From Rhodobacter capsulatus SB 1003 (GTDB taxonomy: Bacteria > Pseudomonadota > Alphaproteobacteria > Rhodobacterales > Rhodobacteraceae): a stretch of DNA of 32,000 nucleotides. The DNA is taken from assembly GCF_000021865.1 (NCBI RefSeq), contig NC_014034.1:2280001-2312000 (forward strand), given 5' to 3'. A model generated the notes under the pieces. The model was given only the letters and a program-made list of their open reading frames with translations. It ran no database searches and was not told the origin of the DNA. Shown here one piece after another: positions 1 through 27,593 of the stretch (the stretch's first letter is position 1; every line of letters starts with the position of its first letter). The position numbers and the translations under genes were made by a program.

Positions 1-1025
1 AGCCGCAGACCGACCCGCCCCGGGGGGCGCGGCTGCCGGGTTGAGGGCAGGTCAAGCCGCAGCTCCACCCCGCCCGCCTCAAGCCGCAGGACCAGCCGCT
101 CCTGCGCGCCCAGAAATTCGGCCCGTTCGATCCGCGCCGGGGCCCCCGCGGCCGGATCGCAAAGCGCAAGCGCCTGCGGGCGAAAGAAGGCCACCGCCGC
201 CTGCCCCTCGGCCAGCCCCGGGGCGGCAAACCGGCCCAGCGGCGTCACCAGCGCGCCGCCCGCCACCTGCCCCGGCAGGGTGCTGCCCGGACCGAGAAAG
301 CGCGCGGCGTAAAGCGTTGGCGGCGCGTGATAAAGGCTGCGCGGATCGGCCAAAGCCTCGATCTTGCCCGCCTGCATCACGGCCAGATGATCGGCCACCG
401 CCAGCGCCTCGGCCGGGTCATGGGTGACAAGGATCGCCGCCACCCCGATCTGGCGCAACAGCGCCAGCGTCTCGGCCCGGACGCTGTCGCGCAGCCCCTG
501 ATCCAGGTTGGAAAACGGCTCGTCCATCAGCAAAAGCCCGGGCCTCGGCGCCAGCGCCCGCGCCAGCGCCACGCGCTGGCTTTCCCCGCCCGAAAGCTGG
601 TGCGGATAGCGGTCCGCCAAAGCGCTTACCCCCGCCACCGCCAGAACCTCGGCCACCCGGGCCTTCAGCTCCGCAGAGGGCGCCCCGCGCAGGCCGAAGG
701 CCACGTTTTCCGCCACGCTCAGATGCGGAAACAGCGCGTAATCCTGAAACATGAAGCCGATGCCGCGCGCCTCGGGGTCGACGAACCGCCCCGGCCCCGC
801 CAGCACCCGCCCCGCCAGCACGATCTCGCCGCTGTCCGGGCGCTCGACCCCGGCGATCAGGCGCAGCAGCGTGGACTTGCCGCAGCCCGACGCGCCCAGC
901 AGACACAGGATTTCGCCCTGACCAAGGTTGAAGGAAATCTCCGCAAGCGCCGTCACCGCACCGAAACGGCGGCTGACGCGATCAAGACGAAGCCAGGAAG
1001 CGGCGGGCAAGGGCGCAGGTGTCAT
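1..1025 (-). CDS. ABC transporter ATP-binding protein (FbpC/PotA-like importer ATPase); 3' end lies beyond the window edge
   Basis: Not in the ORF track because it runs off the left edge. Hand translation of the minus strand from ATG 1025-1023 gives MTPAPLPAASWLRLDRVSRRFG... Motifs: Walker A GASGCGKST, Q-loop FQDYALFPH, signature LSGGESQRV, Walker B LLLMDEP, H-loop VTHD, followed by a C-terminal regulatory-type extension. I checked the frame codon by codon; it stays open to nt 3. Confidence 0.85.
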   Translation of the reverse strand, partial: MTPAPLPAASWLRLDRVSRRFGAVTALAEISFNLGQGEILCLLGASGCGKSTLLRLIAGVERPDSGEIVLAGRVLAGPGRFVDPEARGIGFMFQDYALFPHLSVAENVAFGLRGAPSAELKARVAEVLAVAGVSALADRYPHQLSGGESQRVALARALAPRPGLLLMDEPFSNLDQGLRDSVRAETLALLRQIGVAAILVTHDPAEALAVADHLAVMQAGKIEALADPRSLYHAPPTLYAARFLGPGSTLPGQVAGGALVTPLGRFAAPGLAEGQAAVAFFRPQALALCDPAAGAPARIERAEFLGAQERLVLRLEAGGVELRLDLPSTRQPRPPGRVGLR

Positions 1026-1099
1026 CGGCCCAATCTAGGCAACCGCGGCCAAAAATCCATCCCGCACCAGCGGATTTGCCGCCTGCTGAGCGCCCCGGT

Positions 1100-3217
1100 T
1101 CAGGCGTTCATGTCGCGCATGAGGCGGCCGTGTTTTCGGACTTCGGTGAGGACGGCGCCGAAGGTGGTCAGGCCGCGGGCCTTGAGGGCGGGCAGCAGGC
1201 GCAGGAAGGCCTCGGCCGTGGCGACCGTGTCGCCAAGCGCGGTGTGGCGGGCTTCCTCGGGGATGGTGATGCCCAGCCGATGCGTCAGCGCGTCCAGGCT
1301 GTGGCCCTCGGCGGCGCCGAAGACCACCGCCGACAAAAGCACCGTGTCGAGCACCGGATTGTCGAAATTCTTGCCGATCAGCAATTCCTTGCGGCGCAGG
1401 AATTCCAGATCGAAGGGCGCGTTATGGGCGACCAGCACCGCGCCCTCGGCGAATTTGTGGAACCGCCGCCCGACCTCGGCGATCGCGGGCGCGGTTGCCA
1501 CCATCGCCTCGGTGATGCCGTGAACCGCCGTCGAGGCCGCCGGGATCGGCCGCCCCGGGTTCACGAGCGTGTCAAAGACCTCGCCCGCCACCCGCCGCCC
1601 GTTGACGATCCGCACCGCCGCGATCTGCACGATCTCGTCGCCGCCGGTGGGAAAGAGCCCCGTCGTCTCGGTGTCGAAGACGACGAAGGTCAGCTTGTCG
1701 AGCGGGGTTTCGGCCAGCGCGCTTTCGCCGCCCCGCCCCAGCAGATCAAAGTCATAGACCACCTGGCGCGGCACCGGACGGGGCACCGGATGGGGATCCG
1801 GGCCGATCCGGCGTGCCTCGCGCAGCGGCAGGCAGAGCCGGTGCCGCCCCTCGTGCAGCCGCTCGGGCCACAGATCGGTCGCATGGACCGAGAGCACCCG
1901 CCGCCCGGTCACCTCGGCCTGGCCCACATCCAGCGGCTCGGAGAGCCACAGCTCCAGATCGGCAATCGCCACCGCCGCGCCGCGCCATTCGAGCGCGATC
2001 AGCGCCCCCGCGCCGTCTTCAAGCACCTCCAGCCGCTTCTCGGCCCGGCCCGGGCCCAGACGGCGCACCAGATGCGCGATCAGCGCCACCATCTCGAAGC
2101 CCTCCAGCCGCAGCAGCAGGGCCGCGGTCACCGGCAGCAGATCGCCCGCCCCCTCGGCCGCGACGCGGGCCTGCACGGCGGCGCCGAAATCCGAGGCGCG
2201 GATCATCGCAAGCGGCCACCAGTCGGCCCGCATCGCCTCGTGGCGGTCGTGCAGGCTGTGGATCGCCTGCGCAAGATGGCCCGCCTCGGCCCGGGCGGCC
2301 TCGCGCAGCTGCGCGCGGGCCTGCGGATCGGCGGGCCCGTCCTCGGCGATCAGCACGCCCATCAGCGATTGCAGCGCCGCGGCCGGACGGCGGATGCGGT
2401 CGAACAGCTCGTCCATCAGCGCCTCGCGCCCGGCATGGGCGCGCAGATCGGCCGAGACATCGCGCAAGGTCAGCACATAGCCCGCCAGGCGCCGCACCTG
2501 ATGATCCTCCCCCTCCGAGATCAGCCGCATCCGCGCGGCGAGCGTGCGGCCATCGGCCACCGTCGCGCACAGAAGATCCGAGGCGGCATCGGGATCGGCC
2601 GTCGCCAGAAGCCGCGCATGGGCATGGCGGATCGGCGCCGGGTGCAGATAGTCGAAGACCCGCCGGTCGAGCCCCGGCGCATGCGCCCCGCCCAGCAGAT
2701 CGACCGCCTGACCGTTGTAAAAGACCAGGGCATGATCGGCGGTGCACAAAAGCACCCCCACCGGCACGTCCGACAGCAGCGTCTCCAGCCGGTCCTTTTC
2801 GCGGGCAAGCCGGGTGGTCTCGCGCTGCACCGCCTCGGTCAGCGCCGAGCGGGTCTCGTTCAGATGCTGCGCGATCGCCGCCGCCGCCGGGGCCAGATCG
2901 CCCAGATAGCGCCCCGCGCTTTCATCCAGCGCGCTGTCGACCGCGGTCTGGGTGCGCGCCCGGATCGAGCCCGCCAGCCGCTCGATCGGCCGCGCCAGAT
3001 TGGCGTCGAACAGCGCCCAGACCACCCCGATCAGGCCCAGGATGACCAGCCCCGCCACGGTGCCGCCGATCACGAAGCCCGAAAGCGCCTCGGGCCGGGC
3101 GAGCTTGTGAAAGCCGAAGACCAGCCCCGCGACCAGCGCCGCAAGATTGCCCATCGCCAGCGCGGCGAAGAACAGGAAGATCCGGAGGCGCAGGCTGAGC
3201 CGGGCCAGCCCCATCAC
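1100..3217 (-). CDS. Membrane sensor (2 TM, HAMP, PAS, degenerate histidine-kinase-like region) fused to a DEDDh 3'-5' exonuclease (DNA pol III epsilon / RNase T-like) domain
   Basis: 705-aa ORF. N-terminal hydrophobic helices (IFLFFAALAMGNLAALVAGLVFGF; FVIGGTVAGLVILGLIGVVWALF). The C-terminal ~197 aa carry ExoI FDTETTG, ExoII AHNAPFDLEFL and ExoIII HTALGDTVATAE (H-x4-D, i.e. DEDDh). The start (GTG ATG at 3217-3212) overlaps the stop of the upstream receiver gene. Confidence 0.85.
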   Translation of the reverse strand: MMGLARLSLRLRIFLFFAALAMGNLAALVAGLVFGFHKLARPEALSGFVIGGTVAGLVILGLIGVVWALFDANLARPIERLAGSIRARTQTAVDSALDESAGRYLGDLAPAAAAIAQHLNETRSALTEAVQRETTRLAREKDRLETLLSDVPVGVLLCTADHALVFYNGQAVDLLGGAHAPGLDRRVFDYLHPAPIRHAHARLLATADPDAASDLLCATVADGRTLAARMRLISEGEDHQVRRLAGYVLTLRDVSADLRAHAGREALMDELFDRIRRPAAALQSLMGVLIAEDGPADPQARAQLREAARAEAGHLAQAIHSLHDRHEAMRADWWPLAMIRASDFGAAVQARVAAEGAGDLLPVTAALLLRLEGFEMVALIAHLVRRLGPGRAEKRLEVLEDGAGALIALEWRGAAVAIADLELWLSEPLDVGQAEVTGRRVLSVHATDLWPERLHEGRHRLCLPLREARRIGPDPHPVPRPVPRQVVYDFDLLGRGGESALAETPLDKLTFVVFDTETTGLFPTGGDEIVQIAAVRIVNGRRVAGEVFDTLVNPGRPIPAASTAVHGITEAMVATAPAIAEVGRRFHKFAEGAVLVAHNAPFDLEFLRRKELLIGKNFDNPVLDTVLLSAVVFGAAEGHSLDALTHRLGITIPEEARHTALGDTVATAEAFLRLLPALKARGLTTFGAVLTEVRKHGRLMRDMNA

Positions 3218-3609
3218 GCCCCCTCCGGGTCCAGCAGCCGGTGCAATTCGTCGCGCAGCTCCTTCAGCTCGAAGGGTTTGGCGATGAACCCGTCGGCGCC
3301 AAGCGCCAGCGCCTTGCGCCGCTCCAGCGCCGAGCCGCGCGCCGTCATCATCACGATCCGCACCCCGGCCAGCGCGCCATCGGCCCGGACCTGCTGGCAG
3401 ATCTCGTAGCCCGAGACCTCGGGCAGCATCACGTCGAGCAGCACCAGATCGGGGCGCTCGGCGCGGATGCGCTCGACCGCGCCCAGCCCGGTGGCCAGCC
3501 GCGCATGATCCAGCCCCTCGCGGCCCAGAAGATAATCAAGCGCAATGGCGATGTTGTCCTCGTCCTCGACGATCAGCACGCGCGGCCTGCCGCCGCTTTC
3601 CCCGGTCAT
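3214..3609 (-). CDS. Single-domain CheY-like response regulator receiver
   Basis: ORF 3214..3687 trimmed to ATG 3609 (MTGESGG), which is preceded by GGAGGA. An alternative ATG at 3663 lies 1 nt after the upstream stop. Receiver motifs: acidic pocket VEDEDN, phospho-acceptor LLDVMLP, MMTARG Thr, AKPF Lys. There is no output domain. Confidence 0.85.
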   Translation of the reverse strand: MTGESGGRPRVLIVEDEDNIAIALDYLLGREGLDHARLATGLGAVERIRAERPDLVLLDVMLPEVSGYEICQQVRADGALAGVRIVMMTARGSALERRKALALGADGFIAKPFELKELRDELHRLLDPEGA

Positions 3610-3664
3610 TCCGTCCTCCCGCGCGGGGGCCATCTCTGCCCGCCGCCTCTCCGCCCGCTGCATG

Positions 3665-5491
3665 TCAGCCCACCACGGCCTTGCCATGACCCAGCGCCGA
3701 TTGCATCGTGCGCACCACCACGAAAGCGTCGCGCAGATGCGCGCGTTCGAAATCGCTCAGATCCGAGGGCGCGAGGAAATTGTCCGGCGCCCGCCCGGAG
3801 CGGATCAGCCGGGCCTGGTTTTCCAGCCGCGTCGTCGCGATCAGGTCATAGGCCTCGATCAGATCGCGCGCCTCGCCGGGGGCGATCGTCCCGGCCTCCT
3901 CGGCGGCCTTCAGCCGGGCGCGGGTATTGGCGAGACCAAGCCGCCCGCGCAGCGCCTGCACCCGCGCCAGATCGATCACCGGCACCACCCCGTTCATCTT
4001 CAGATCGATGTGGTTGCGGTGCTCGCCCGAGCGGATCGTGGCAAAGCCGCGCAAGAGGCCCAGAGGCGGCGTGTGCTTGAGCGCATTGCCCAGCATATGC
4101 GCGATGAAGATCGGGCTTTGCGCCGCCAGCCGCAGGGTTTCTTCCTGCAGCGCGGTGAAGAGATCGGCGCCAGTGCCGCCGATCGGGCGCAGATCGAACA
4201 TCACCGAGGCCAGCATCTGCGCCTCGGGGTTCGGCGTGTCGATCCAGTCGTGGAAATAGCGCCGCCAGACCCCGAGCGGCTGGCACCAGCGCGCGGCCGT
4301 GGCCATCATCTCGCCCGGGCAATGCACGTAACCGCAGGCGTCAAGCCCGTCGCAGACGATCTTCGCCAAAGCGCGGAAATACTCCATGTCTTCGGGCTTT
4401 GCCGCATCATCCAAAATCAGGCAATTGTCCTGATCGGACACGCCAGTCTGTTCCTGCCGCCCCTGAGAGCCGCAGGCGAGCCAGAGATAGGGCACCGGCG
4501 GCGGCCCGAGATCGCGTTCGGCCATCACCAGAAGCCTGCGCGTCACCGCATCGGCGATGTCGGTGATCAGCCGCGTCACCACGTCATGGGCGTGATGCGC
4601 GCCGACAAGCTGCACCAGCAGCTGCGGGATCCGCGCGGTGACCGCGGCCATCTCGGCCAGGGTCTCGGCCGAGACCACGTCGCGAATGAGCACCGCCGCC
4701 GAGACCGCCTGAAACCGCGTCAGATCGGTCTGGGTGATCATGCCGACGAAACGCCCCGCCTCGGTGATCGGCAGATGGCCGATGCGCCGCTCCAGCATGA
4801 TATGCAGGATGTCGGAGCCGAGCGCGGTGGGCGGCAGGCTGACCGGATCCGCCGTCATCACCGCCGCCACCGGGGTTTCGGGCGCTTGCCCCTCGGCCAG
4901 GATCTTGTTCGACAGATCGCGCTGGGTGACGATGCCCAAAAGCGTCCCGTCCGCCGCGACGACGCCGAGCGAGGAAACATGCGCCGCGCGCATCTGCTGC
5001 GCCGCCGCGATCGCGGGGGTGTCGGGCGCGCAGGCAAGCGGCTTGCGCGCGATCAGATCGGCCACTTTCTGCGTCGCGATCTCGGTCGAGACCTTCTCGC
5101 CGCGCTTCCTGTTGAAGAAGCGCTCGAACGCCGGATAGGTCTCGATCAGCCGCTTGAAGCTGGGGGTGGGCAGCACAAGGCAGACCGTCTGCGCCGTCGC
5201 CCGCGCCTGGGTCGCGGCCAGCCCGTCGCGCAGAAGACCGCGCTCGCCAAAGGAATTGCGCGGACCCAGAAGCGAGACCAGCCCGCCATTGCCGTCGGTG
5301 ATTTCCACCGCGCCCTGCTTGATCAGGTAAAGCCCGCCCAGGGGCGTCTGATGCACATAGATCAGCGCCTGGGCGCAAAATTCCATGCGGCGAAAGGAAC
5401 GGGCCACCTCGGCCAGCTCGTCACGCGGCAGGGTATCATAGGGATGGACGGTTTCCAGAAAGGCAAGGACGGCCTGACGGTCGGGTTCCAT
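3665..5491 (-). CDS. cNMP-binding + tandem CBS + DUF294 (GlnD-like, Pol-beta fold) putative nucleotidyltransferase with DUF294_C substrate-binding domain
   Basis: ORF 3665..5752 trimmed to ATG 5491 (MEPDRQ, SD GGAGAG); the longer version would overlap actP. Contains a cNMP-binding-like segment (LYLIKQGAVEI...FGERGLL), two CBS repeats (VSSLGVV..GIVTQRDL; IGHLPIT..GMITQTDL), the NTase signature CGSQGRQEQTGVSDQDN and a helical C-terminal domain. Confidence 0.9.
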   Translation of the reverse strand: MEPDRQAVLAFLETVHPYDTLPRDELAEVARSFRRMEFCAQALIYVHQTPLGGLYLIKQGAVEITDGNGGLVSLLGPRNSFGERGLLRDGLAATQARATAQTVCLVLPTPSFKRLIETYPAFERFFNRKRGEKVSTEIATQKVADLIARKPLACAPDTPAIAAAQQMRAAHVSSLGVVAADGTLLGIVTQRDLSNKILAEGQAPETPVAAVMTADPVSLPPTALGSDILHIMLERRIGHLPITEAGRFVGMITQTDLTRFQAVSAAVLIRDVVSAETLAEMAAVTARIPQLLVQLVGAHHAHDVVTRLITDIADAVTRRLLVMAERDLGPPPVPYLWLACGSQGRQEQTGVSDQDNCLILDDAAKPEDMEYFRALAKIVCDGLDACGYVHCPGEMMATAARWCQPLGVWRRYFHDWIDTPNPEAQMLASVMFDLRPIGGTGADLFTALQEETLRLAAQSPIFIAHMLGNALKHTPPLGLLRGFATIRSGEHRNHIDLKMNGVVPVIDLARVQALRGRLGLANTRARLKAAEEAGTIAPGEARDLIEAYDLIATTRLENQARLIRSGRAPDNFLAPSDLSDFERAHLRDAFVVVRTMQSALGHGKAVVG

Positions 5492-5532
5492 GATCTCTCC
5501 TGTGCAGGCGGGGCCCGTGAAGGCGGGGGAAC

Positions 5533-5552
5533 GGGCGGGGAGGACCCCGCCC
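5533..5552 (-). promoter_or_regulatory. Intercistronic GC hairpin between actP and the NTase gene
   Basis: GGGCGGGG-agga-CCCCGCCC: an 8-bp perfect stem with a 4-nt loop inside the 70-nt gap. There is no U-tract, so it is not a canonical intrinsic terminator. It could act as a processing, stability or attenuation element. Confidence 0.35.
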
Positions 5553-5561
5553 GCCGCCGGA

Positions 5562-7298
5562 TCAATGCGCCGAGGCTTCGGCGGCGCCGATGCCGGTTTC
5601 CGAACGGATCTCCTGCGCCAGATAGCCGTCCCGGTCCTGATCGCCGCGCCGGCTCTTGTCGGTGATCGAAAAGAGCCAGATCCCCGCAAAGCCCAGCACC
5701 ATCGAGAAGAGCGCGGGCGAGGTATAGGGGAAGGGCGCCGAGCCCTTTTCAAAGCCGAGCGTGGCCTCCCAGACCGAGGGCGAGATCACGGTCAGCGCCA
5801 CCGAGCTGATCAGCCCGAGGGAACCGCCGATCACCGCGCCGCGCGTCGTCATGCCCTTCCACAGAAGCGACATGAAGAGCACCGGGAAGTTCGCCGAAGC
5901 GGCGATGGCAAAGGCCAGCGACACCATGAAGGCGATGTTCTGCTTTTCAAACGCCAGACCCAGAACCACCGCGACGATGCCAAGGCAGATCGTGGTGATG
6001 CGCGAGACCCGCAGCTCCGAGGCGCTGTCGGCCTTGCCGTTCTTGAACACGGTCGAATAAAGGTCATGCGACACCGCCGAGGCGCCCGAGAGCGTCAGAC
6101 CGGCGACCACGGCCAGGATCGTGGCAAAGGCCACCGCCGAGATGAAGCCGAGGAAGATGTTGCCGCCCACCGCCTGCGCCAGATGGATCGCCGCCATGTT
6201 GTTGCCGCCCACCAGCGTCAGCGCGCCCTTGGCATCATAGCTGACCAGACCCGGGTTGGTCAGGACATAGACGATGGCGCCAAAGCCGATGATGAAGGTC
6301 AGCATGTAGAAATAGCCGATCCAGACCGTCGCCCACATCACCGACTTGCGCGCTTCCTTGGCCGAAGGCACGGTGAAGAAGCGCATCAGGATATGCGGCA
6401 GACCGGCGGTGCCGAACATCAGCGCCATGCCGAAGGAAATCGCCGAGATCGGGTCTTTCACGAAGGTGCCCGGCCCCATGATCGAGATCCCCGCAGCCGC
6501 CGCCTCCTCGGGGGTCTTGCCCGCCGCCAGCGCCAGATCGGTCTTCACCTTGACCGAGTCCGCAAACAGGCTTTCCAGGCTGAAGCCGTAATGCACCATC
6601 ACCATCAGCGCCATGAAGCTGGCCCCGCCCAGCAGCAGACAGGCCTTGATGATCTGCACCCAGGTCGTCGCGGTCATGCCGCCAAACAGCACATAGACCA
6701 TCATCAGGATGCCGACGACGATCACCGCATAAAGATATTCCAGCCCGAACAGCAGCTTGATCAGCTGCCCCGCGCCCACCATCTGGGCGATCAGGTAAAA
6801 GGCCACGACGACCAGCGTCGACATCGCCGCAAAGACCCGCACCGGCGTCTGCGCGAACGGGAAGGCCGCCACATCGGCGAAGGTGAACTTGCCAAGGTTG
6901 CGCAGCCGCTCGGCCATCAGGAAGGTCAGGATCGGCCAGCCGACCAGAAAGCCGATCGAATAGATCAGCCCGTCATAGCCCTGCAGCATCACCGCCGCCG
7001 AAATCCCCAGAAAGGACGCCGCCGACATGTAATCGCCCGCGATCGCCAGCCCGTTCTGAAAGCCGGTGATGCCGCCGCCCGCGGTGTAGAAATCGGCCGC
7101 CGATTTCGTCCGCCCGGCCGCCCATTTCGTGATGAACAGCGTCGCCACCACGAAAAAGCCGAACATCGCGATCGCGGTCCAGTTCGTGGGCTGCTTTTGC
7201 ACCGCCCCCTCGATCGCGCCCGCCGCAAGGGCAAGGCCGGGCGTCAGGCTCAGCGCCGAGACCGCCGCAAGGCGGGTGAAGGTCGTGACCGGGCTCAT
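5562..7298 (-). CDS. actP: Cation/acetate symporter ActP (SSS family)
   Basis: 578-aa multi-TM protein. The N-terminal signal-like segment followed by [31 protein letters not shown] matches the ActP N-terminus pattern; [30 protein letters not shown] is a typical SSS motif. Its start overlaps the yjcH stop (ATGA). Confidence 0.93.
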
Positions 7299-7603
7299 TT
7301 CAGCACCTCGCGCTTCACCTGGGCGGTCAGCTCGTCATAGTCGCTGTTGGCGCGGAAGACGTAGATCGCCGTCACCACGATGGTGAACAGGATCACCCCG
7401 AAGCCGACCGGGATCCCCCAGGTCATCACCCCCTCGCCCATCGGCACGGCCAGAAGGTCCTTGCGAAAGGCGATGACGGTGATGAAGCCGTAATAGACCA
7501 GCAGCATCGCGATGGTGAGCAGCCAGCCGAACCGCAAGCGCTTTGTCTTCAGCGCGTGGTAGGCCGGGCTCCTGGCGATGCGTTCCAGCATCGTGTCTTG
7601 CAT
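7295..7603 (-). CDS. yjcH: DUF485 inner-membrane protein (YjcH), ActP partner
   Basis: 102 aa with two TM helices ([22 protein letters not shown]; [21 protein letters not shown]). It sits immediately upstream of, and overlaps, actP. Strong SD GAGGAGG. Confidence 0.9.
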
Positions 7604-7837
7604 GTGTTTTCCTCCTCGTTGAAGTCGTCCGCTCCGGCTTGCGCGGCGCGGTTTGGCCGTGTTGCCCCGGCCGTTGCTCTTGACCCGCCCGTAGCGGCGG
7701 GGGTTTCACACCCCCGCACCCCCGTGGCGTAGTTGCGCCAGGAAAAAGCACAGACTTTTGCCCGTTCACCCTGGCGCAAATCTCCCGGGGGGAGAGGTGG
7801 CGCGGGCAAGTCGGGGGGCGGCGCCCCCCGCCTCCGG

Positions 7838-9808
<1,971 letters not shown>

Positions 9809-9879
9809 GAAATCCTCCTGTGTCGGCGACCAAGGCCACCAGATGCCGCGGCACATCCGCGGCAGCTCTCCCGAGAGGC

Positions 9880-9953
9880 ATTGTAAACTGATTGTGTATC
9901 TTCCCGTAAACCCTTTTTTTGCCATGACAAAAATGTAAACGAATTTACGGAAA
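9880..9953 (-). promoter_or_regulatory. Candidate acs promoter with repeated GTAAA(C/T) motifs and nested palindromes
   Basis: An AT-rich island in an otherwise GC-rich genome. On the acs sense strand: TTTACG-N19-TACAAT (the -10 lies at 9880-9885). GTAAA-CGAA-TTTAC palindrome at 9935-9948. TTCCCGTAAA (9901-9910) is inverted relative to TTTACGGAA (9944-9952). TTTTTG-N6-CAAAAA lies between them. Confidence 0.4.
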
Positions 9954-10108: not shown

Positions 10109-11215
<1,107 letters not shown>

Positions 11216-11219
<4 letters not shown>

Positions 11220-12838
11220 GGCGCCACCTCCGGCGCGGTCACGGGGGCGACGGCGGGCACGACGACGGACTGCGGCGGCACCAGCGCGCGGGCGGTCTGC
11301 TGCATGTAGCCCAGCACCGGGGCGGCCTTGAGCGAGAGCAGCACCATAAGCCCGATCAGCGCCACCACCGGGGCGATTTCCAGCGCCAGCACCCGCGGCG
11401 GCGGCGCATCGGCGGCCCAGAAGCTTTGCACGCCGACCCGCACCAGACCGATCAACGTCGCCAGCCCCGCGCCCAGCAGCAGCGCCGCAAAGATCCAGTG
11501 CAGCGCAGCGCTTGCCGGGCCCGCCGCCAGAAGCCCCTGCAACATCCCGAGCTTGCCCAGAAACCCCGCCAGCGGCGGCAGCCCCGCCAGCGCCAGCGCA
11601 CAGGCGCCAAAGGACAGGCCCAGCACCGTCAGCGTGCCCGGGATCGCCAGCCCGGCCCCGGGCGCGGCCTCTTCCTCGCGCTCGTCAAGACCGTAGGCAT
11701 CGGCGGTCAGCGCCAGAAGCCCGGCAATGCCCCCCTCCTCGCGGCTCATCGGCTCGATCAGCAGGAACAGCGCGCTGGTCGCAAGGGTCGAATTGAGCAG
11801 GTAAAACAGCGCCGCCGCCAGGATCGCGCCGTCCGCCCCCGCCAGCACGACCCCCGCCGCGGTCAGGATCGTGCCCGAGGAGACCAGCACCAGATGCGCC
11901 GCGATCCGGCCCAGCCCCTGCGCCGCCAGAATGCCGATGACGCCAAAGAGGATCGTCGCCATGCCGCCCGCGATCAGCACCGGGGCGCCAAAGCCCGCCG
12001 AGGCCCCCGCCCCCGCGCCAAACAGCAGAAAGGAGAGCCGCAAGATCACATAGACGCCGACCTTGGTCATGATCGCGAAGATCGCCGCCACCGGCGCGGC
12101 GCTGGCCATATAGGCGGTGGGCAGCCAGAAGGACAAAGGCCAGATCCCGGCCTTGATTAGAAAGGCGAGCCCCATCAGCGCCGCCCCGGCCTGAAACAGC
12201 GCCCGCCGCCCCTCGGGCAGATCGGGCACAAGCCCCGCCAGCTGCGCCATGTTCAGCGTGCCGCTGGCGCCGTAGATCAGGCTGACCCCGATCAGGAACA
12301 GCGCCGATCCGGTCAGGTTGACGGCGATGTAATGCAGCCCCGCGCGCACCCGCAGCTGCCCGCCGCCATGCAGCAACAACCCGTAGGAGGCCGCCAGCAG
12401 CAGCTCGAAGAAGACGAAGAGGTTGAACAGATCGCCGGTCAGAAAGGCGCCGTTCAGCCCCATCAGCAGGAACTGGAACAGGCTGTGGAAATGCGGCCCC
12501 TGCCGGTGCCAGCCCGCCGCCGCATAGACCAGCGCGGGCAAAGCCAGCAGCCCGGTCAGCACCAGCATCAGCGCCGAAAGCCGGTCGTTCACCAAAACGA
12601 TGCCCCAGGGCGCGACCCAGTCGCCCAGCCGGTAAAGCCCCGCCTCGGCCCCGCCCGGCCCCTGCGCCTTGGCCCGCGACAAAAGCTCGAGCGCGCAGAC
12701 CAGCGTCGCGAAGGCCGAGACCAGGCTGATCGCCAGTTTCGCGCGGCGCTGCCGGTCGTCATAGATCAGCATCAAGGCCCCGGCAAAGAACGGGATCAGG
12801 ATCGGCGCGATGATCAGATGTTCGGGCGCAGGGATCAT
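11216..12838 (-). CDS. mrpD: Monovalent cation/H+ antiporter subunit D (MrpD/PhaD, NuoN/ND2-like)
   Basis: 540-aa polytopic protein with proton-pumping-subunit motifs (FLTGDLFNLFVFFELLLAASYGLL; WLPTAYMASAAPVAAIFA). Confidence 0.92.
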
Positions 12839-13182
12839 GCCTCGGGCTCCTTGCCGTCGACATGGTCATTGCCGGTCAGCCCCCGCGCCGCGATCAGCAC
12901 GACCAGAAACAGCGCCGTCGCGGCAAAGCCGATGACGATCGCCGTCAGGACCAGCGCCTGCGGCAGCGGATCGGCATAGGCGGTCGGATCGATGAACCCG
13001 CCGCGCGGCATGATCGGCGGCACCCCCACCATCAGCCGCCCCATCGCGAAGATGAACAGATTGACCGCATAGGACAAAAGGCAAAGTCCGACGATCACCT
13101 GAAACGTGCGCGGGCGCAGCAGCAGCCAGACCCCCGAGGCGGCCAGAATCCCGATCGCGGCAGAAAGAACGATTTCCATCAC
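12835..13182 (-). CDS. mrpC: Monovalent cation/H+ antiporter subunit C (MrpC/PhaC, NuoK-like)
   Basis: 115 aa, 3 TM helices. ADPLPQALVLTAIVIGFA is typical of MnhC/NuoK. Confidence 0.9.
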   Translation of the reverse strand: MMEIVLSAAIGILAASGVWLLLRPRTFQVIVGLCLLSYAVNLFIFAMGRLMVGVPPIMPRGGFIDPTAYADPLPQALVLTAIVIGFAATALFLVVLIAARGLTGNDHVDGKEPEA

Positions 13183-16067
13183 GCGGCCTCCCGTTCCTTT
13201 TGCGCGGCGCGGTCACGCTCGCGCAGGCGGGCGATGCGCAGCGACTGGTGCGCGAGCGCAATCAGCATCAGCACGGTCACCCCCAGCACCAGCGCAAAGA
13301 CCCCGGCATCGAAGATCAGCGCCGTCGCCGCCGGAACCTGCCCGATCAGCGGCAGATCGACATACCGCGCATGCGCGGTCAGGAACGGATGGCCGAAGAC
13401 AAAGGCGCCCAGCCCCGTGCCCCCCGCGATCAACAGCCCCACCCCCATCCAGCGGATCGGCAGCACGGTCAGCCGCGCCTCGACCCAGCGCAGGTCATGG
13501 CCCAGATATTGCAGCAAAATCGCGATCGACACCGTCACCCCGGCGGAAAAGCCGCCGCCCGGCAGGTCATGGCCGCGAAAGAACAGGATCGCCGCCAGCA
13601 CGATCAGCACCGGGAACATCCAGCGCATGATCACCGAGGGCACCAAAAGCGCATGCGCCAGCGTCGGATCGCGCAGCCCGGCCTCTTCCTCGGTGCGGGT
13701 GGTGCTTTCGGGCGCGGGGCGGAAGCGGCGCAGCAGCGCAAAGACGGTGATGCCGACGATCGCCAGAACGGTGATTTCGCCAAAGGTGTCGAAGGCGCGG
13801 AAATCCACCAGGATCACGTTGACGACATTGGTGCCGCCGCCCTCGTGATAGGCGTTGCGCAGGAACCAGTCGCCGACATTGGGGATCAGCGGCCAGGTCA
13901 TCATCACATGGGCGACGGCGGCCAGACCGATGCCGACGGTCCCCGCGATGACGAAATCGCGCGCCCGGCGCAGCCGTGCGGGCAAAAGCCGATCGGCGGC
14001 GATTTCCTCGCGCCGTTTCGGCAGCCAGCGCAGGCCCAGCAGCAACAGCACGGTGGTGACGATCTCGACCAGCAGCTGCGTCACCGCCAGATCGGGCGCC
14101 GACAGCCAGGCAAAGGTCAGGCAGGTCACCGCCCCCGCACCGCCAAGCAGGATCACCGCGGCGAAGCGGTGGTATTTCGCCAGCGCCGCCGCCCCCAGGG
14201 CACAGGCCGCCCCCGCCGCCCACATCGCCGCAAAGGCCGGGTTCAGCGGCACCGAAAGCGGATCTGCCGCGGGCGCCAGCACGCCCCAGAGCGGCACCGC
14301 CGCCGCCGCCAGCGCCAGAAGCACGATCAGCCGCAGCTGCGGTTGCAGCCGTTCCGTCCCGAAAAGCCGCAGCCCCAGCCGCGGCAAGGTCCAGGTCAAA
14401 AGGAACATCGTGCGCTCGAAAAGCTTCTGCGCCCGCAGCCGGTGCAAGAGCGGCGGCCCCTCGGGCCCGCGCGCGATCGCGGCGTGAAACAGCGCATGCA
14501 GCCCCACCCCCGCCACCAGCGCGACGCAGCTCATCGCGAGCGGCAGCGTCAGCCCGTGCCACAGCGCGATGTCGGTATAGGGCAGATCCGGCCCCAGCAC
14601 CGAAACCGCCGCCAGATGCAGCACCGGGCCTAGCGTCAGACCGGGCAGGATGCCGACAAGAAGACAGATCAGCACCAGCGCCTCGACCGGGCGGCGCATC
14701 AGCGCGGGCGGCTCGTGCGGGCTGCGCGGCAGGTCGGTGGCGACGGGGCCAAAGAAGACGCTGGCGATGAAACGCAGCGAATAGGCGACGGAAAAGGCCC
14801 CCGCCAGCACCGCCCAATAGGGCAGCGCATTGTCCAGCCAGCTGCCGTTGTTCCAATCCGCCGCGGCGGCAAAGAACATCTCCTTGGACAAAAAGCCGTT
14901 GAGCAGCGGCACCCCCGCCATCGCAGCCGAGGCGACGATGGCCAGGCTTGCCGTCACCGGCATCGCGTGGCGCAGCCCGCCCAGACGGCGCATGTCGCGG
15001 GTGCCGGTCTCGTGGTCGATGATCCCCGCCGCCATGAACAGCGAGGCCTTGAAGACGGCGTGATTGAGCAGATGAAAGATCGCCGCCAGAATGGCGCCAT
15101 CGCTGCCGATCCCCGCCAGCGCGGTGATCAGCCCCAGGTGGCTGATCGTCGAATAGGCCAGCAACCCCTTGAGATCATGTCGAAAGATCGCAAGGAACGC
15201 GCCCAGGACCAGGGTTGCCATGCCGGTCCCGGTGACCAGATGGAACCACAGATCGGTCTGCCCCAGCACCGGCGAGAAGCGCACGAGCAGGAACACCCCC
15301 GCCTTCACCATCGTCGCCGAATGCAGAAAGGCCGAGACCGGCGTCGGCGCCGCCATCGCGCCGGGCAGCCAGAAATGAAACGGCATCTGCGCCGATTTGG
15401 TGAAACAGCCGATCAGAAACAGCCCCAGCACCAGCGGATAAAGCGGATGCGCCCGCACCAGATCGCCCGAAGCCAGAACCCGGTCCAGATCATGGCTGCC
15501 GACGATCTGCCCCAGAAGGATCATCGCCAGCAGCAGGCACAGCCCCCCCGCCCCGGTGACGATCAGCGCCATCCGTGCCCCGTCCCGCGCCGCCTGCCCC
15601 TGATGCCAATAGCCGATCAAGAGGAAGGACAGGATCGAGGTCAGCTCCCAGAACACCACCAGCATCAGGATGTTGCCCGACAGCACCACGCCGACCATGG
15701 CCCCGGTGAAGGCCATCAGAAAGGCGTAAAACCGCGGCACCGGATCGGTTTTCGACAGGTAGTAGCGCGCATAGATCAGCACCAGACTGCCGATGCCGAA
15801 GATCAGCGAGACGAAGAGCCAGACGAAACCGTCCATGCGGAAGCTCAGATCCAGCCCGAGCGCGGGCACCCAGCCGATCTGGCCGCGCACCACCTGCCCC
15901 GCGCCGATCGCCCCGTGCAACAGCGCCAGCACGACGCCCCCCGCCGCCAGAAACAGCCCCGACACCCAGGCCGCCGCGTCATGCGCGCGCGGCGACATCG
16001 TGCTTGTCGCCAAAGCCGCCGCAAAGGGCAGCGCCACAAGGATCAGCAGCAGGTTCTCTTCGATCAT
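13179..16067 (-). CDS. mrpA: Fused MrpA/MrpB (PhaAB-type) antiporter subunit
   Basis: ORF 13179..16196 trimmed to the ATG at 16067 (MIEENLLLILVALPF). 962 aa: a NuoL/ND5-like N-terminal part (WELTSILSFLLIGYWH; HSATMVKAGVFLL) plus a C-terminal MrpB-like extension (GGGFSAGV motif). Confidence 0.9.
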   Translation of the reverse strand: MIEENLLLILVALPFAAALATSTMSPRAHDAAAWVSGLFLAAGGVVLALLHGAIGAGQVVRGQIGWVPALGLDLSFRMDGFVWLFVSLIFGIGSLVLIYARYYLSKTDPVPRFYAFLMAFTGAMVGVVLSGNILMLVVFWELTSILSFLLIGYWHQGQAARDGARMALIVTGAGGLCLLLAMILLGQIVGSHDLDRVLASGDLVRAHPLYPLVLGLFLIGCFTKSAQMPFHFWLPGAMAAPTPVSAFLHSATMVKAGVFLLVRFSPVLGQTDLWFHLVTGTGMATLVLGAFLAIFRHDLKGLLAYSTISHLGLITALAGIGSDGAILAAIFHLLNHAVFKASLFMAAGIIDHETGTRDMRRLGGLRHAMPVTASLAIVASAAMAGVPLLNGFLSKEMFFAAAADWNNGSWLDNALPYWAVLAGAFSVAYSLRFIASVFFGPVATDLPRSPHEPPALMRRPVEALVLICLLVGILPGLTLGPVLHLAAVSVLGPDLPYTDIALWHGLTLPLAMSCVALVAGVGLHALFHAAIARGPEGPPLLHRLRAQKLFERTMFLLTWTLPRLGLRLFGTERLQPQLRLIVLLALAAAAVPLWGVLAPAADPLSVPLNPAFAAMWAAGAACALGAAALAKYHRFAAVILLGGAGAVTCLTFAWLSAPDLAVTQLLVEIVTTVLLLLGLRWLPKRREEIAADRLLPARLRRARDFVIAGTVGIGLAAVAHVMMTWPLIPNVGDWFLRNAYHEGGGTNVVNVILVDFRAFDTFGEITVLAIVGITVFALLRRFRPAPESTTRTEEEAGLRDPTLAHALLVPSVIMRWMFPVLIVLAAILFFRGHDLPGGGFSAGVTVSIAILLQYLGHDLRWVEARLTVLPIRWMGVGLLIAGGTGLGAFVFGHPFLTAHARYVDLPLIGQVPAATALIFDAGVFALVLGVTVLMLIALAHQSLRIARLRERDRAAQKEREAA

Positions 16068-16191
16068 GCGCCCGCAGCTGTCCTTTCCGGGTTTGAAATC
16101 ATGGAGGAGCCCGTCGCGACACCGGCCCCGGCGGTCCGCGCAAGCAGGCTGCCGCGGGGCCGGGCCCCGGACGTTGGCAGGGCATATCTGT

Positions 16192-16221
16192 CTCATAAAG
16201 GGGTTGTTTACGCCATTTCAA
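16192..16221 (-). promoter_or_regulatory. Candidate sigma70-type promoter of the mrp/pha operon
   Basis: On the minus strand: TTGAAA-N18-TATGAG, in the only AT-rich patch of the divergent mrpA/sbcD spacer. This would give a 5' UTR of ~120 nt containing a GC-rich imperfect hairpin. Confidence 0.3.
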
Positions 16222-16363: not shown

Positions 16364-17581
16364 ATGCGCATCCTGCACACCGCCGACTGGCATATCGGAC
16401 AGACCCTGAACGGCTGGTCGCGCGAGGCCGAGCACCGCGCCTTCCTGGCCGATCTGGGCGAAATCCTGCTGGCGGAACAGGTGGATGCGCTGCTGGTGGC
16501 GGGGGATGTGTTTGACGGGCTCAACCCCTCGGGCGAGGCGCAGCGGCTGCTTTACGCGGCGCTGGCGGGCTATGTCCGGGCCAATCCGCGGCTGCAGATC
16601 GTGCTGACATCGGGCAATCACGACCCGGCGCAGCGGCTGGAAGCCCCCGAGGCGGTGCTGCGCGAGCTGGGCGTGCATGTCCTTGGCACGCTGAGCCGCG
16701 GCCCCGGGGGGATGGATCTTGACCGCCATCTGATCCCGCTGCGCGACCGGGCCGGGCAGATCCGCGCGCAGGTTCTGGCGCTGCCCTTCCTGCGTCAGGC
16801 CGATCTGCCGGGGCTGCGCCTGGGCGCCGAGGAGGGGACCGAGGGCGCCGTCACCGCCGCGCTGCGGGCGCTGCTGGCCGAGACGGTCGCGCGCGCCGCA
16901 GCGATCGCGGGCACGCTGCCGCTGATCGCGATGGCGCATCTGACCTGCGCGGGCGGGCTGGAAAGCGCGGGCGCCGAGCGGCGCATCCTGATCGGCGGCG
17001 ATCATGCCGTGCCCCCCGATGTCTTTCCCCCCGCGCTGGCCCATGTCGCGCTCGGTCACCTGCACAGGCCGCAATCGCTCGACGGCGGGCGGGTGCGCTA
17101 TTCCGGCGCGCCCTTTCCGCTTTCGGCCAGCGAGATCGGCTATGACCACGGCGTCACGCTGCTTGATCTGGCAGGCGGCGCCGCGCCGCGCCATATCCCG
17201 CTGCCGCGTCCGGTGCCGATGCTGCGCCTGCCCGCGCAGGGAACCGCCCCCCTGCCCGAGATCCTCGCCGCGCTCGACCGGCTCGCCCTGCCCGACCGCC
17301 CCCGCGCCGAGGGCCCCTTCCTCTATCTCGCGCTGCGGGCCGACCGCCCGGTGACCGAGATCACCGCGGCCCTTGATGCCGCGCTCGAGGCGTTGCCCCT
17401 GCGGCTGGCCGGGCTGACGATCACCCGCCCCGAAACCGCCCGCCCCGCGGCCGCCCCGCCGCAGGATCTGACCCGGACCACGCCCGAGGCGCTGTTTGCC
17501 GCGGCCTTTCGCGATCTGCACGGCACCGAGCCCGAGACCCGCCATCTGAGCGCCTTCCGCGACGCGCTGTCCGAGGTCTGA
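16364..17581 (+). CDS. sbcD: Exonuclease SbcD (Mre11-type nuclease subunit)
   Basis: MRILHTADWHIG, VAGDVFD, TSGNHD, AMAHL and ALGHLH: the calcineurin-like phosphoesterase motifs I-V of SbcD/Mre11. Confidence 0.93.
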   Translation: MRILHTADWHIGQTLNGWSREAEHRAFLADLGEILLAEQVDALLVAGDVFDGLNPSGEAQRLLYAALAGYVRANPRLQIVLTSGNHDPAQRLEAPEAVLRELGVHVLGTLSRGPGGMDLDRHLIPLRDRAGQIRAQVLALPFLRQADLPGLRLGAEEGTEGAVTAALRALLAETVARAAAIAGTLPLIAMAHLTCAGGLESAGAERRILIGGDHAVPPDVFPPALAHVALGHLHRPQSLDGGRVRYSGAPFPLSASEIGYDHGVTLLDLAGGAAPRHIPLPRPVPMLRLPAQGTAPLPEILAALDRLALPDRPRAEGPFLYLALRADRPVTEITAALDAALEALPLRLAGLTITRPETARPAAAPPQDLTRTTPEALFAAAFRDLHGTEPETRHLSAFRDALSEV

Positions 17582-17585
17582 GCCC

Positions 17586-21302: not shown

Positions 21303-21396
21303 CGCTTTTTTCCGCCGATGCGTCGGCGCCGAAACGCGGGCGGCGGCGGCGGCATGCAAGGATCGGCCAAGCCGCGCAGCAAGGAAGGAACCCGCC

Positions 21397-22299
21397 ATGG
21401 CCGACAGACGCGATCACCGGATCATCGACGGCAAGGCGGTGCAGCAGCGCCTTTTGGCCGGGATCCGCGCCGAGCTGGAGGCGGCGGCAGAGACCCATCC
21501 GGTCGGGCGGCTGGTGTCGATCTCGATCGGCCCCTCGCCCGAGATCGAGGTCTATGTCCGCAATCAGGCCCGCGCCGCCGCGACCGCCGGTCTGCCCTTC
21601 GAACAGGTGGTCTGGGAGGCCTCGGCGACGCAGGAGGCCTGCAAGCGCAAGATCGCGGCGCTGAACGATGACCCCTCGGTGCTGGGGATCATCCTGCAAC
21701 GCCCGGTGCCCGCGCATATCCATGTCCGCTCGCTGCAATCGGCGATCCATCCGCTGAAGGATGTCGAGGGGATGAACCCCGCTTCGATAGGCAATATCGT
21801 TTACAATGACATCGCGCTCGCGCCCTGCACCGCGGCGGCGGCGGTGGAGATGGTGCGCGCGACCGGGCTGCCCTTGCCGGGGCTTGAAGTGGTGATGATC
21901 GGGCATTCGGAAATCGTCGGCAAGCCCGTCGCCTTCCTGCTGATGGCCGAGGGGGCGACGGTGACGGTGTGCCACCACATGACGCGCTCGGTCGCGATGC
22001 ATTCGCGGCGTGCCGATGTGGTGATCGTGGCCGTCGGCAAGGCGCATCTGATCGGGCCGGAGATGATCAAGCCCGGCGCGGCGGTGATCGACATCGGGAT
22101 CAATCAGGTCACCGATGCGGCGGGCAAGGTGCGGATTCTGGGCGATGTGGACACCGAGGCCGTGCGCGAGGTGGCGGGCTGGATCACCCCGGTTCCGGGC
22201 GGCGTCGGGCCGGTGACGGTGGCGATGCTGATGCGCAACGCGCTGACCGCGCATCGCCGTCAGGTGGCGGCGGGCTGGCTGGAAGCCGCCAAGGCCTGA
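21397..22299 (+). CDS. folD: FolD-family methylenetetrahydrofolate dehydrogenase/cyclohydrolase paralogue (atypical YxxxK motif)
   Basis: ORF 21205..22299 trimmed to ATG 21397 (MADRRDH, SD AAGGAAGGAA). Motifs: IIDGKAV, LGIILQRPVP, DVEGMNP, PCTA, IGHSEIVGKP, VIDIGIN, ITPVPGGVGPVTVAML. Confidence 0.9.
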   Translation: MADRRDHRIIDGKAVQQRLLAGIRAELEAAAETHPVGRLVSISIGPSPEIEVYVRNQARAAATAGLPFEQVVWEASATQEACKRKIAALNDDPSVLGIILQRPVPAHIHVRSLQSAIHPLKDVEGMNPASIGNIVYNDIALAPCTAAAAVEMVRATGLPLPGLEVVMIGHSEIVGKPVAFLLMAEGATVTVCHHMTRSVAMHSRRADVVIVAVGKAHLIGPEMIKPGAAVIDIGINQVTDAAGKVRILGDVDTEAVREVAGWITPVPGGVGPVTVAMLMRNALTAHRRQVAAGWLEAAKA

Positions 22300-27574: not shown

Positions 27575-27593
27575 GCGCATTCCCCCGGGCCGC

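Follow-up and report, generated by a model that had tools for sequence, protein, structure and literature searches.

DUF294 proteins, in which sensor domains are combined with a nucleotidyltransferase (NTase) core, are encoded together with an RNase_T-type exonuclease in pseudomonads, where the two genes are among the most strongly acetate-induced gene pairs. In both gamma- and alphaproteobacteria, the pair keeps a conserved place beside symporters of the acetate type. Here we analyzed a 32,000-nucleotide stretch of Rhodobacter capsulatus SB 1003 (NC_014034.1, positions 2,280,001 to 2,312,000; the window), in which the acetyl-CoA synthetase gene acs and the acetate uptake genes yjcH and actP are followed by genes for a 608-aa DUF294 protein, a stand-alone receiver and a 705-aa membrane protein ending in a DEDDh exonuclease domain. 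The best database match of the 705-aa protein, from R. capsulatus, shows 100% identity. The DUF294/exonuclease pair is a known, uncharacterized member of the acetate response, and the fusion of a membrane pseudo-kinase to the exonuclease, putatively controlled by the receiver, is a new variant of it. We found no description of this fusion or its receiver in the literature searched.

In Pseudomonas aeruginosa, PA3232-PA3235 (nuclease, DUF294 protein, actP and yjcH) are upregulated about 16-fold on propionate (PMC9765439). The DUF294 gene Pflu5625 of Pseudomonas fluorescens belongs to the CrbS/R regulon, and its deletion causes no acetate phenotype (PMC5715377). In Pseudomonas alloputida KT2440, PP_0353 (exonuclease) and PP_0354 (NTase) are the genes most dependent on MxtR/ErdR. 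Both mutants grow less well on propionate; growth on pyruvate is impaired in the PP_0353, yjcH and actP-I mutants but not in the PP_0354 mutant, and the authors state that the function of both genes is unclear (bioRxiv 10.64898/2026.09.07.749794). The DUF294 proteins PA3233, PP_0354 and Pflu5625 have the same architecture as the R. capsulatus protein (cNMP-binding domain, two CBS domains and NTase), likewise with an RNase_T-type partner (PA3232, PP_0353), and all take part in the response to acetate or short-chain acids, PA3232-PA3235 being coinduced with actP and the others being direct targets of CrbS/R (MxtR/ErdR). They differ in that the Pseudomonas exonuclease is small and soluble, comes with neither a receiver nor a membrane pseudo-kinase, and is controlled transcriptionally via CrbR/ErdR; moreover, the P. 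putida and P. fluorescens pairs are not adjacent to actP, unlike the pair in R. capsulatus. The earlier note on this DNA had mentioned such gammaproteobacterial pairs beside actP, with a small soluble exonuclease, and these reports bear it out. In Shewanella amazonensis and P. stutzeri, Price et al. found cofitness between DUF4212/SSF and a neighboring "COG2905 (RNAse T domain protein)" gene, which they suggested to affect symporter expression. From the gene position, we suspect that the cofit gene is the exonuclease.

A second group of putative relatives consists of the adenylyltransferase GlnE, the uridylyltransferase GlnD and the Legionella AMPylator DrrA. Like the DUF294 protein they have an NTase core followed by a helical domain of the KNTase_C clan (for the DUF294 protein in a low-confidence model; PMC3710099), attached small-molecule sensor domains, and the logic of a reversible mark whose writer and eraser are encoded together or fused. 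The eraser is a second NTase domain in GlnE, an HD domain in GlnD and the PP2C-like SidD in the case of DrrA, whereas the partner here is a DEDDh exonuclease. We propose that the R. capsulatus genes form a sensor-controlled writer/eraser module acting on the acetate-type uptake and activation system, as the local version of a widespread accessory module. We favor this reading tentatively and rate it as quite possible, if somewhat short of an even chance.

Nucleotidyltransferase and exonuclease domains

The 608-aa protein begins exactly 70 nt downstream of the actP stop codon, at ATG 5491 (Table 1). It contains cNMP_binding (E 2.7e-13; PF00027, 50.1 bits against a gathering threshold of 27.5), two CBS domains (E 7e-24), DUF294 (E 5e-47; PF03445, 159.6 bits against 21) and DUF294_C (E 2e-43; PF10335, 148 bits against 22.5), and belongs to COG2905. 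This is the domain order that had been read from the sequence earlier. The motif CGSQGRQEQTGVSDQDN provides the Pol-beta NTase signature G[SG]...DxD with a third acidic residue (G341-S342...D353-Q-D355 and D433), and these five residues are invariant in alignments of 6 and 28 sequences with members down to 26% identity. The active site is intact, and catalysis is predicted. Both CBS motifs retain the G-h-h-T-x-x-D ribose-binding pattern.

The cNMP-like domain is different. The phosphate-binding cassette of cNMP-binding domains consists of Gly-Glu followed by Arg-Ser/Thr-Ala, the triplet being RSA in CRP and PKA with the arginine at R82 and R209, respectively. In the R. capsulatus domain (residues 36-119) the cassette reads FGERGLLRDGLA-ATQ, with Gly-Glu retained and the phosphate-binding Arg replaced by Ala. 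The same Ala is present in Paracoccus, Thioclava and Frigidibacter, and Hyphomicrobiales-type DUF294 proteins lack the cNMP domain altogether. Gating by cAMP or cGMP, which the earlier note had proposed, is doubtful because of the missing Arg and these cNMP-less proteins; the ligand of the domain is probably not cAMP or cGMP bound in the canonical way.

Sequence and profile searches of the PDB with the DUF294 core found no related solved structure, and the protein has no sequence-level match to any PDB entry. An AlphaFold (AF2) model from a two-sequence alignment had low confidence (pLDDT 59.7). With this model, Foldseek ranked 1v4a, two chains of 3k7d and 6yx5 as its top four matches (E 2e-3 to 2e-2) and gave noise below them, so that the only matches above noise from this low-confidence model were to both NTase halves of the glutamine synthetase adenylyltransferase GlnE and to DrrA, which AMPylates Rab. 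DUF294_C has been grouped with the C-terminal domain of GlnD and GlnE by Anantharaman et al. (PMC3710099). This weak likeness to GlnE and DrrA favors a protein target over an oligonucleotide signal.

The exonuclease domain of the 705-aa protein matches RNase_T (PF00929) at residues 512-671 with 138.7 bits against 24. It passes the DnaQ-family model TIGR00573 (110.7 bits against 71.5) and fails the dnaQ equivalog cut-offs (TIGR01406, 113.4 against 222.7; NF004316, 109.7 against 196). None of the catalytic residues D515, E517, D603 and D663 varies among 49 diverse representatives, in which H658 is nearly invariant, and all five are invariant in 36 Paracoccaceae sequences. The DEDDh site is intact, and exonuclease activity is predicted. 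The best sequence and structure matches of residues 506-705 are DnaQ, PolC and DinG: Foldseek aligned this part with the Pol III epsilon structure 2gui (32% identity, TM 0.83), PolC exonucleases (38-39% identity), DinG and ExoX. RNase T was a more distant match and Orn was not among the matches, so the analogy to Orn and RNase T as trimmers of very short oligonucleotides, drawn earlier, lacks specific support.

These results bear on an alternative in which the NTase makes a linear or cyclic (oligo)nucleotide messenger when the adenylate status changes, the exonuclease degrades it, and the messenger tunes ActP or Acs. Synthase/hydrolase pairs are typical of such signals, both enzymes carry sensor domains, and DEDDh enzymes such as Orn are established to clear dinucleotides. 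However, the NTase resembles none of the CD-NTases, GGDEF or DisA-type synthases and matches GlnE and DrrA instead, the exonuclease is unlike Orn, the loci encode no conserved effector or receptor, and a synthase fused to its own hydrolase, as occurs in some lineages (see below), would be futile unless tightly switched. We consider a nucleotide messenger very improbable, and the (oligo)nucleotide signal offered as one option by the earlier note loses ground to a protein target, given a match to protein AMPylators that is itself weak (PMC3710099).

One side observation concerns a relative of the DUF294 protein. Rhodobacter viridis has a second DUF294 paralogue (L007:10001-11821), 80% identical to the window protein, which stands alone between a MacAB-type exporter and tex with no exonuclease, receiver or symporter gene nearby.

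Gene neighborhoods and fusions

With the DUF294 protein as query, species-representative genomes yielded 80 loci, all from Paracoccaceae and 64-88% identical, which were annotated with phmmer against reference proteins; a profile search of a large protein database with 49 diverse representatives recovered the same Paracoccaceae clade again. The receiver and the sensor-exonuclease protein are encoded downstream of DUF294 in 66 of the 67 loci with enough downstream DNA, a symporter pair is encoded upstream in 61/62, and adk and acs are present in 54/55. The linkage of the NTase/exonuclease pair to symporter and acs genes, suggested earlier from the window, is borne out within Paracoccaceae by these phylogenetically nonindependent counts. 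The usual order is acs-adk-DUF4212-SSF-DUF294-U178-REC-fusion, with REC denoting the receiver gene and U178 a gene for a membrane protein. R. capsulatus and R. viridis represent a derived form, with DUF4212-SSF replaced by yjcH-actP and without U178. Therefore, the control module held its place while the transporter type changed.

Outside this clade, Bradyrhizobium icense and a metagenome-assembled genome (MAG) have the receiver, the fusion, a small open reading frame (ORF) and an SLC5-type HisKA/HATPase_c kinase running one way and the DUF294 side running the opposite way, where a cNMP-less DUF294 protein is encoded with acs or with DUF4212-SSF. These comparisons support a link to acetate-type uptake genes that survives changes both of the transporter type (ActP/YjcH versus SSF/DUF4212, two unrelated pairings of symporter and small subunit) and of the gene order.

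In other lineages the two enzymes are joined. A complete single-chain RNase_T::CBS::DUF294::DUF294_C protein is encoded in one MAG and on 7 independent metagenome contigs, two of them with the fusion gene beside DUF4212-SSF. On the basis of this fusion we argue that the two enzymes share a substrate; the functional coupling of the two enzymes had been anticipated from the window, and recurrent single-chain proteins speak for it. A 1,154-aa sensor-exonuclease-CBS-DUF294 protein (P0206) was not used as a Rosetta stone, being a singleton on a 5-kb contig whose exonuclease part stops before motif III.

The product names in public records imply yet another reading, that the 705-aa protein is a Pol III epsilon-like proofreading or repair exonuclease that lies near the acetate genes by chance. 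It is annotated as "DNA polymerase III subunit epsilon," and the TIGR00573 family cut-off is reached. Against this stand the failed dnaQ equivalog cut-offs, the 500 residues of membrane sensor, the translational coupling to the receiver, the place after DUF294 and symporter genes kept in all but one of the 67 loci, and, in other lineages, the DUF294 proteins fused to the soluble exonuclease that belongs to this system. The context effectively excludes this reading: context and fusions are those of a signaling protein and not, as for DnaQ, of a replisome subunit.

The main rival is that the pair edits RNA 3' ends. Here the NTase would add untemplated nucleotides to an RNA, for instance the symporter or acs mRNA, a tRNA or a small RNA, and the DEDDh enzyme would trim them. 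How stable the transporter mRNA is, or how well it is translated, would depend on this editing, and control would be post-transcriptional instead of being exerted on the protein. DEDDh enzymes are established as 3'-5' exonucleases of nucleic acids, the domain is a standard DnaQ/RNase_T domain with all catalytic residues present, and poly(A)- and CCA-adding enzymes belong to the Pol-beta NTases. Having a polymerase-like domain and an exonuclease in one chain would be the classic synthesize-and-trim arrangement, and an effect of the cofit gene on symporter expression, as suggested by Price et al., fits as well. So does a conserved hairpin at the actP 3' end: in the 70-nt gap between actP and the DUF294 gene, a perfect stem of 8-9 bp without a U-tract lies directly past the actP stop, and R. 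viridis has the same stem with another loop at this place (L006, about 2981-3008). This hairpin could attenuate read-through into the regulator genes or protect and stabilize the actP mRNA. On the other hand, the only structural relatives found for the NTase are GlnE and DrrA, with no poly(A) polymerase, CCA-adding enzyme or CD-NTase, and its C-terminal domain groups with the GlnD/GlnE type. A membrane-tethered exonuclease would be odd for an RNA enzyme, and an Rfam scan of the window found no RNA family. On balance we think RNA editing rather unlikely. A PADLOC search returned only generic DEDDh matches and nothing for DUF294; the pair is therefore not a known defense system.

Several further features of these loci were seen. 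The U178-type protein (171-178 aa; for example L001:9054-9590, L002:9068-9604 and L003:9085-9606) has two N-terminal transmembrane (TM) helices, two invariant Cys and no Pfam match. Its gene lies between DUF294 and the receiver or exonuclease gene in 65/67 Paracoccaceae loci and in the four inspected loci of a short form of the fusion described below; it was lost in R. capsulatus and R. viridis, and a search of the window for a counterpart found none. The protein may be an accessory sensor for the loop-less TM hairpin of the fusion. An adk gene lies between acs and the symporter genes in 54/55 Paracoccaceae loci (from L001-L003 and L008-L085, at about 7000-7800 in most) and is missing from the window; its insertion fits AMP recycling for Acs and an adenylate-sensing CBS pair. 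The soluble single-chain RNase_T::CBS::CBS::DUF294::DUF294_C protein of about 700-750 aa (L005:20188-21423, plus strand, and L086-L092) recurs in metagenomes, and in L092 its gene directly follows a long sensor-exonuclease gene near an SLC5 kinase and a receiver.

A kinase-like sensor region and its receiver

Residues preceding the exonuclease domain escaped most profile searches. With E values up to 10, Pfam found no HAMP, HisKA or HATPase_c in residues 1-499/500, PAS remained below threshold in the window protein (E 0.007-0.13; 16.8 bits against 21.8), and a PDB sequence search with the sensor region returned FixL only (E 0.09). PAS is recognized in homologues, one of which passes PF00989 with 33.2 bits against 22.6 and others of which carry precomputed PF08448 matches. 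An AF2 model of the whole protein, built from 36 full-length homologues (mean pLDDT 76), contains two TM helices with a 2-residue turn between them and then a long helical region, in which TM2 runs on as a helix to residue 90 and is followed by a loop and a helix at 108-148. Next come a PAS-like alpha/beta fold (154-253), a helical hairpin (255-332), an alpha/beta domain (338-470), a low-confidence linker and the exonuclease (510-704). The motifs RPIERL and LGDLAPA look HAMP-like by eye only, with no Pfam HAMP match. Foldseek aligned the N-terminal part with full-length histidine kinases over 340-475 columns (E 4e-13 to 1e-7), namely, WalK 9a5d (E 4e-13, 475 columns), LOV-HK 8a6x, VicK 4i5s and ThkA 3a0r, and with NifL 9qq6. 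The model shows a predicted histidine-kinase fold made of two TM helices, a HAMP-like helix, PAS, a dimerization and histidine phosphotransfer (DHp) domain and a catalytic and ATP-binding (CA)-like domain. The reading of a 2TM-HAMP-PAS-degenerate kinase joined to a DEDDh exonuclease, made before any database search, thus stood at the level of the model, the Foldseek matches and an H-box with Asp, and failed at the level of hidden Markov models, which detected RNase_T alone with PAS below threshold.

The first helix of the hairpin contains the H-box-like motif F-D273-R-I-R276-R-P278, which aligns with S-H-E-L-R-T-P. Among the 49 representatives, which extend down to about 32% identity, the His position holds Glu in 27 and Asp in 12 (Glu or Asp in 39/49) and other residues in the remainder, never His; R276 is kept in 46. 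Residues of the N, G1 and G2 boxes are all missing from the CA-like domain. Since the phosphorylatable His is never present, the whole family consists of pseudo-kinases, and there was no recent decay in R. capsulatus. The closest described parallel is DivL of Caulobacter, a His-less kinase fold that works with the stand-alone receiver DivK; here too the receiver keeps its phospho-Asp, and its docking on the kinase-like part is our proposal. NifL is similar as a PAS-containing, kinase-like protein that is not a kinase. DivL has a Tyr at the His position and signals to the kinase CckA, whereas the R. capsulatus family has Asp or Glu there and the exonuclease as its output in cis, and its CA-like domain has lost the N-, G1- and G2-box residues. 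As a separate observation, C158 in the PAS-like domain (2743-2752 region) is nearly invariant in the family and H162 is also kept in Paracoccaceae (motif VLLC..DH.LVFYNG); the two residues may form a redox or cofactor site.

The separate receiver, correctly recognized earlier as CheY-like, matches Response_reg with 89.4 bits against 30.2. Across 77 loci, conservation reaches at least 95% for each of its four key features, the acidic pocket EDEDN, the phospho-Asp (VLLD), the Thr (MTARG) and the Lys (KPF), and we count the retention of all phosphorylation residues in favor of a partnership with the pseudo-kinase. The receiver gene has the Shine-Dalgarno-like sequence GGGAGGA 4 nt ahead of ATG 3609, and its stop codon TGA (3216-3214) overlaps both GTG 3217 and ATG 3214 of the 705-aa ORF. 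ATG 3214 is the likelier start because homologues start one codon later. From this overlap, the receiver gene is translationally coupled to the gene for the fusion.

Searching with the sensor region alone yielded 784 clusters at 50% identity and two architectures, of about 700 aa and about 460-510 aa, the shorter lacking the DHp/CA-like part. Short-form loci have the same operon (…DUF4212-SSF-DUF294-U17x-exonuclease), and the receiver gene is absent from all four that were inspected. Long-form loci have the receiver immediately upstream, with L092 and L099 as exceptions. The receiver therefore travels with the kinase-like insert.

A kinase for the receiver is suggested by the Bradyrhizobium-type loci. 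In L004 (12159-15206) and L005 (11466-14513), an ORF of 89-91 aa without a Pfam match lies directly upstream of the gene for a 922-924-aa SSF-HisKA-HATPase_c kinase, in the same gene run as the receiver and the pseudo-kinase-exonuclease fusion. The kinase and the small ORF resemble CbrA and CbrX, and more broadly the CrbS/CbrA-type SLC5-fused kinases, from which they differ in that the kinase has no C-terminal receiver and no DNA-binding response regulator was called in the L004 and L005 loci. This kinase is a candidate for phosphorylating the receiver; it is not present in the R. capsulatus window or within 10 kb of the Paracoccaceae loci.

Signaling could also run the other way, with the receiver as output or phosphate sink: the His-less core would bind, sequester or act on the phosphorylated receiver and so report the membrane or PAS status elsewhere, independently of the exonuclease. 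Pseudo-kinases such as DivL are established to bind a single-domain regulator, Paracoccaceae encode no cognate kinase nearby, and an acidic residue at the His position could mimic the phosphorylated state. However, the receiver occurs only where a DHp/CA-like insert stands between PAS and exonuclease, for which an added exonuclease input is the simplest reading, and the HisKA phosphatase motif (E/DxxT/N next to His) is lost, the sequence being D-R-I-R-R. We regard the reversed direction as quite improbable.

Proposed mechanism and remaining features of the window

In the writer/eraser reading that we prefer, the DUF294 protein would be the writer, a GlnE/GlnD/DrrA-like transferase whose CBS pair reads the adenylate status. 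It would attach a nucleoside monophosphate (NMP) to a target, most likely one of the uptake or activation proteins (the symporter, its small subunit or Acs). The DEDDh enzyme would be the eraser, hydrolyzing the phosphodiester to release 5'-NMP; the bond chemistry would be that of exonucleolysis, with a protein hydroxyl as leaving group instead of a 3'-OH. We infer that the NMP mark is a brake and the exonuclease its release, because the Pseudomonas exonuclease mutant phenocopies loss of the transporter and the transferase mutant does not. This chemistry and an effect on acetate uptake are plausible.

In Rhodobacterales, a 2TM hairpin that has hardly any periplasmic loop would anchor the eraser in the membrane, and the eraser would receive two inputs, one through the HAMP-like/PAS module and one through a phosphorelay. 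In the latter, the receiver, phosphorylated by a kinase encoded elsewhere, would dock on the His-less DHp-like helices and switch the exonuclease. Where the relay kinase is encoded nearby, as in the Bradyrhizobium type, it would be the SLC5-type sensor. The route from receiver to pseudo-kinase would be "reverse" signaling of the DivK-DivL kind. The full proposal, that a DnaQ-fold exonuclease acts as a de-nucleotidylylase erasing the NMP mark of a GlnE-like adenylate-sensing transferase on symporter or Acs, and that in alphaproteobacteria it is switched by docking of a phosphorylated receiver on a His-less kinase core, is a doubtful one in this specific form.

A number of points weigh against the writer/eraser reading. 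The match to GlnE and DrrA was obtained with a low-confidence model (pLDDT 60, E about 2e-3), and by sequence the exonuclease domain is nearest to those of epsilon and PolC, which proofread DNA. The window encodes no kinase for the receiver, nor do the Paracoccaceae loci within 10 kb, and the long-type loci L092 and L099 have no adjacent receiver. The Paracoccaceae counts are phylogenetically nonindependent, so that independence rests on a few other lineages and the literature. To our knowledge, neither the DUF294 proteins nor their exonuclease partners have an assigned activity, and we know of no DEDDh enzyme that removes NMP from a protein. The COG2905/RNAse T label of Price et al. leaves it unclear which gene of the pair was meant. 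Finally, the Pseudomonas mutants have no phenotype on 20 mM acetate (PMC5715377; bioRxiv 10.64898/2026.09.07.749794).

Several clues come from the Rhodobacter form and are missing from the soluble pairs, namely, a membrane location, PAS and kinase-like modules, and a receiver gained or lost with the kinase-like part; the NTase-exonuclease fusion of some lineages is a further clue. Together with the published mutant data, these features lead to a testable model in which energy status and a phosphorelay set a brake-and-release mark on uptake. Should a protein carry the mark, the exonuclease would be a new eraser fold for protein AMPylation or UMPylation and the output a new kind for two-component systems, in which an enzyme-borne pseudo-kinase takes the place of a transcription factor. 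If the pair edits RNA ends, it would be a dedicated tailing and trimming system for one operon. Either outcome would explain how ATP-consuming acetate activation is kept from running away.

The coordinates of the genes, their domains and the intergenic elements are given in Table 1. On rereading the sequence, we found the gene coordinates, the 70-nt gap, the ATGA overlap, the motifs, the Shine-Dalgarno site and the stop/start junctions reported earlier all to be correct.

Table 1. Genes, domains and hairpins of the acs-to-exonuclease cluster. The minus strand is the strand of acs, yjcH-actP and the DUF294, receiver and exonuclease genes.
Feature	Position	Strand	Evidence
acs, acetyl-CoA synthetase, 656 aa	7838..9808	-	NCBIfam TIGR02188, 1024.9 bits vs cut-off 725; Pfam ACAS_N, AMP-binding, AMP-binding_C
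yjcH (DUF485), small membrane partner of ActP	7295..7603	-	Pfam DUF485, E 1.9e-30
actP, predicted cation/acetate symporter, 578 aa	5562..7298	-	NCBIfam; Pfam SSF
Regulatory nucleotidyltransferase (predicted), 608 aa	3665..5491	-	Pfam, alignments, AF2/Foldseek
 cNMP-like domain	5135-5386	-	
 CBS pair	about 4712-5074	-	
 NTase core	4223-4633	-	
 DUF294_C helical domain	3689-4114	-	
Stand-alone receiver, 131 aa	3214..3609 (REC domain about 3244-3579)	-	Pfam Response_reg, E 2e-25
Membrane pseudo-histidine-kinase::DEDDh exonuclease, 705 aa	1100..3217	-	AF2 model, Foldseek, RNase_T E 3.5e-40
 TM1	3101-3193	-	
 TM2	3008-3094	-	
 HAMP-like/signaling helix	2774-3007	-	
 PAS	2453-2773	-	
 His-less DHp (D273 at His position)	2222-2452	-	
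 CA-like domain, followed by linker	1808-2206	-	
 Exonuclease	1103-1702	-	
8-bp GC hairpin CGGGGGGC-gcc-GCCCCCCG, 8 nt past acs stop	7812..7830	-	Fold -26.4 kcal/mol, no better than shuffles
Second terminator-like site between acs and yjcH	7765-7750	-	
Intercistronic GC hairpin GGGCGGGG-UCCU-CCCCGCCC in the 70-nt actP-DUF294 gap	5532..5553	-	Sequence and fold
Terminator-like hairpin and T-run, 26 nt past exonuclease stop, TCCGCTGGTGCGGG ATGGATTTTT	1053..1074	-	Fold energy no better than shuffles

The actP product passes the subfamily model PRK09395 (927 bits against 750) and fails the stricter equivalog TIGR02711 (800 against 1099; both NCBIfam); it is an ActP-subfamily symporter, with its substrate predicted. 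The yjcH and actP genes overlap by 4 nt, and the 234 nt between acs and yjcH hold two hairpins, which suggests that acs is possibly a separate transcription unit. Fold energies of the intergenic hairpins are no better than those of shuffles in this GC-rich DNA, and the hairpins are favored only by their position and the conservation in R. viridis. Cotranscription of the regulator genes with actP and acs is no more than plausible, because hairpins follow acs and the conserved GC hairpin follows the actP stop.

The frames from acs to the exonuclease gene have a GC content at third codon positions (GC3) of 0.82-0.91 in a genome of 70% GC and are therefore real genes, set apart from many spurious ORFs. 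Antisense ORFs of 616-796 aa shadow every real gene of the cluster on the plus strand (1019-3409, 3545-5665, 5490-7340 and 7733-9886); they failed the GC3/GC2 test and were rejected for annotation as artifacts of high GC. Upstream of acs lie an operon for an Mrp-type multisubunit cation/proton antiporter (10109-16196, minus strand), then sbcD-sbcC (16364-21302, plus strand) and folD (21205-22299, plus strand). The listed folD ORF overlaps the end of sbcC by about 100 nt, and its true start is probably further downstream. Two ORFs of 231 aa (28868-29563) and 193 aa (30981-31562) on the minus strand have good codon bias and no Pfam match. At 24767-28796 (minus strand), overlapping ORFs encode a 960-aa methyl-accepting chemotaxis protein and a Peripla_BP_6 binding protein, which are apparently coupled.

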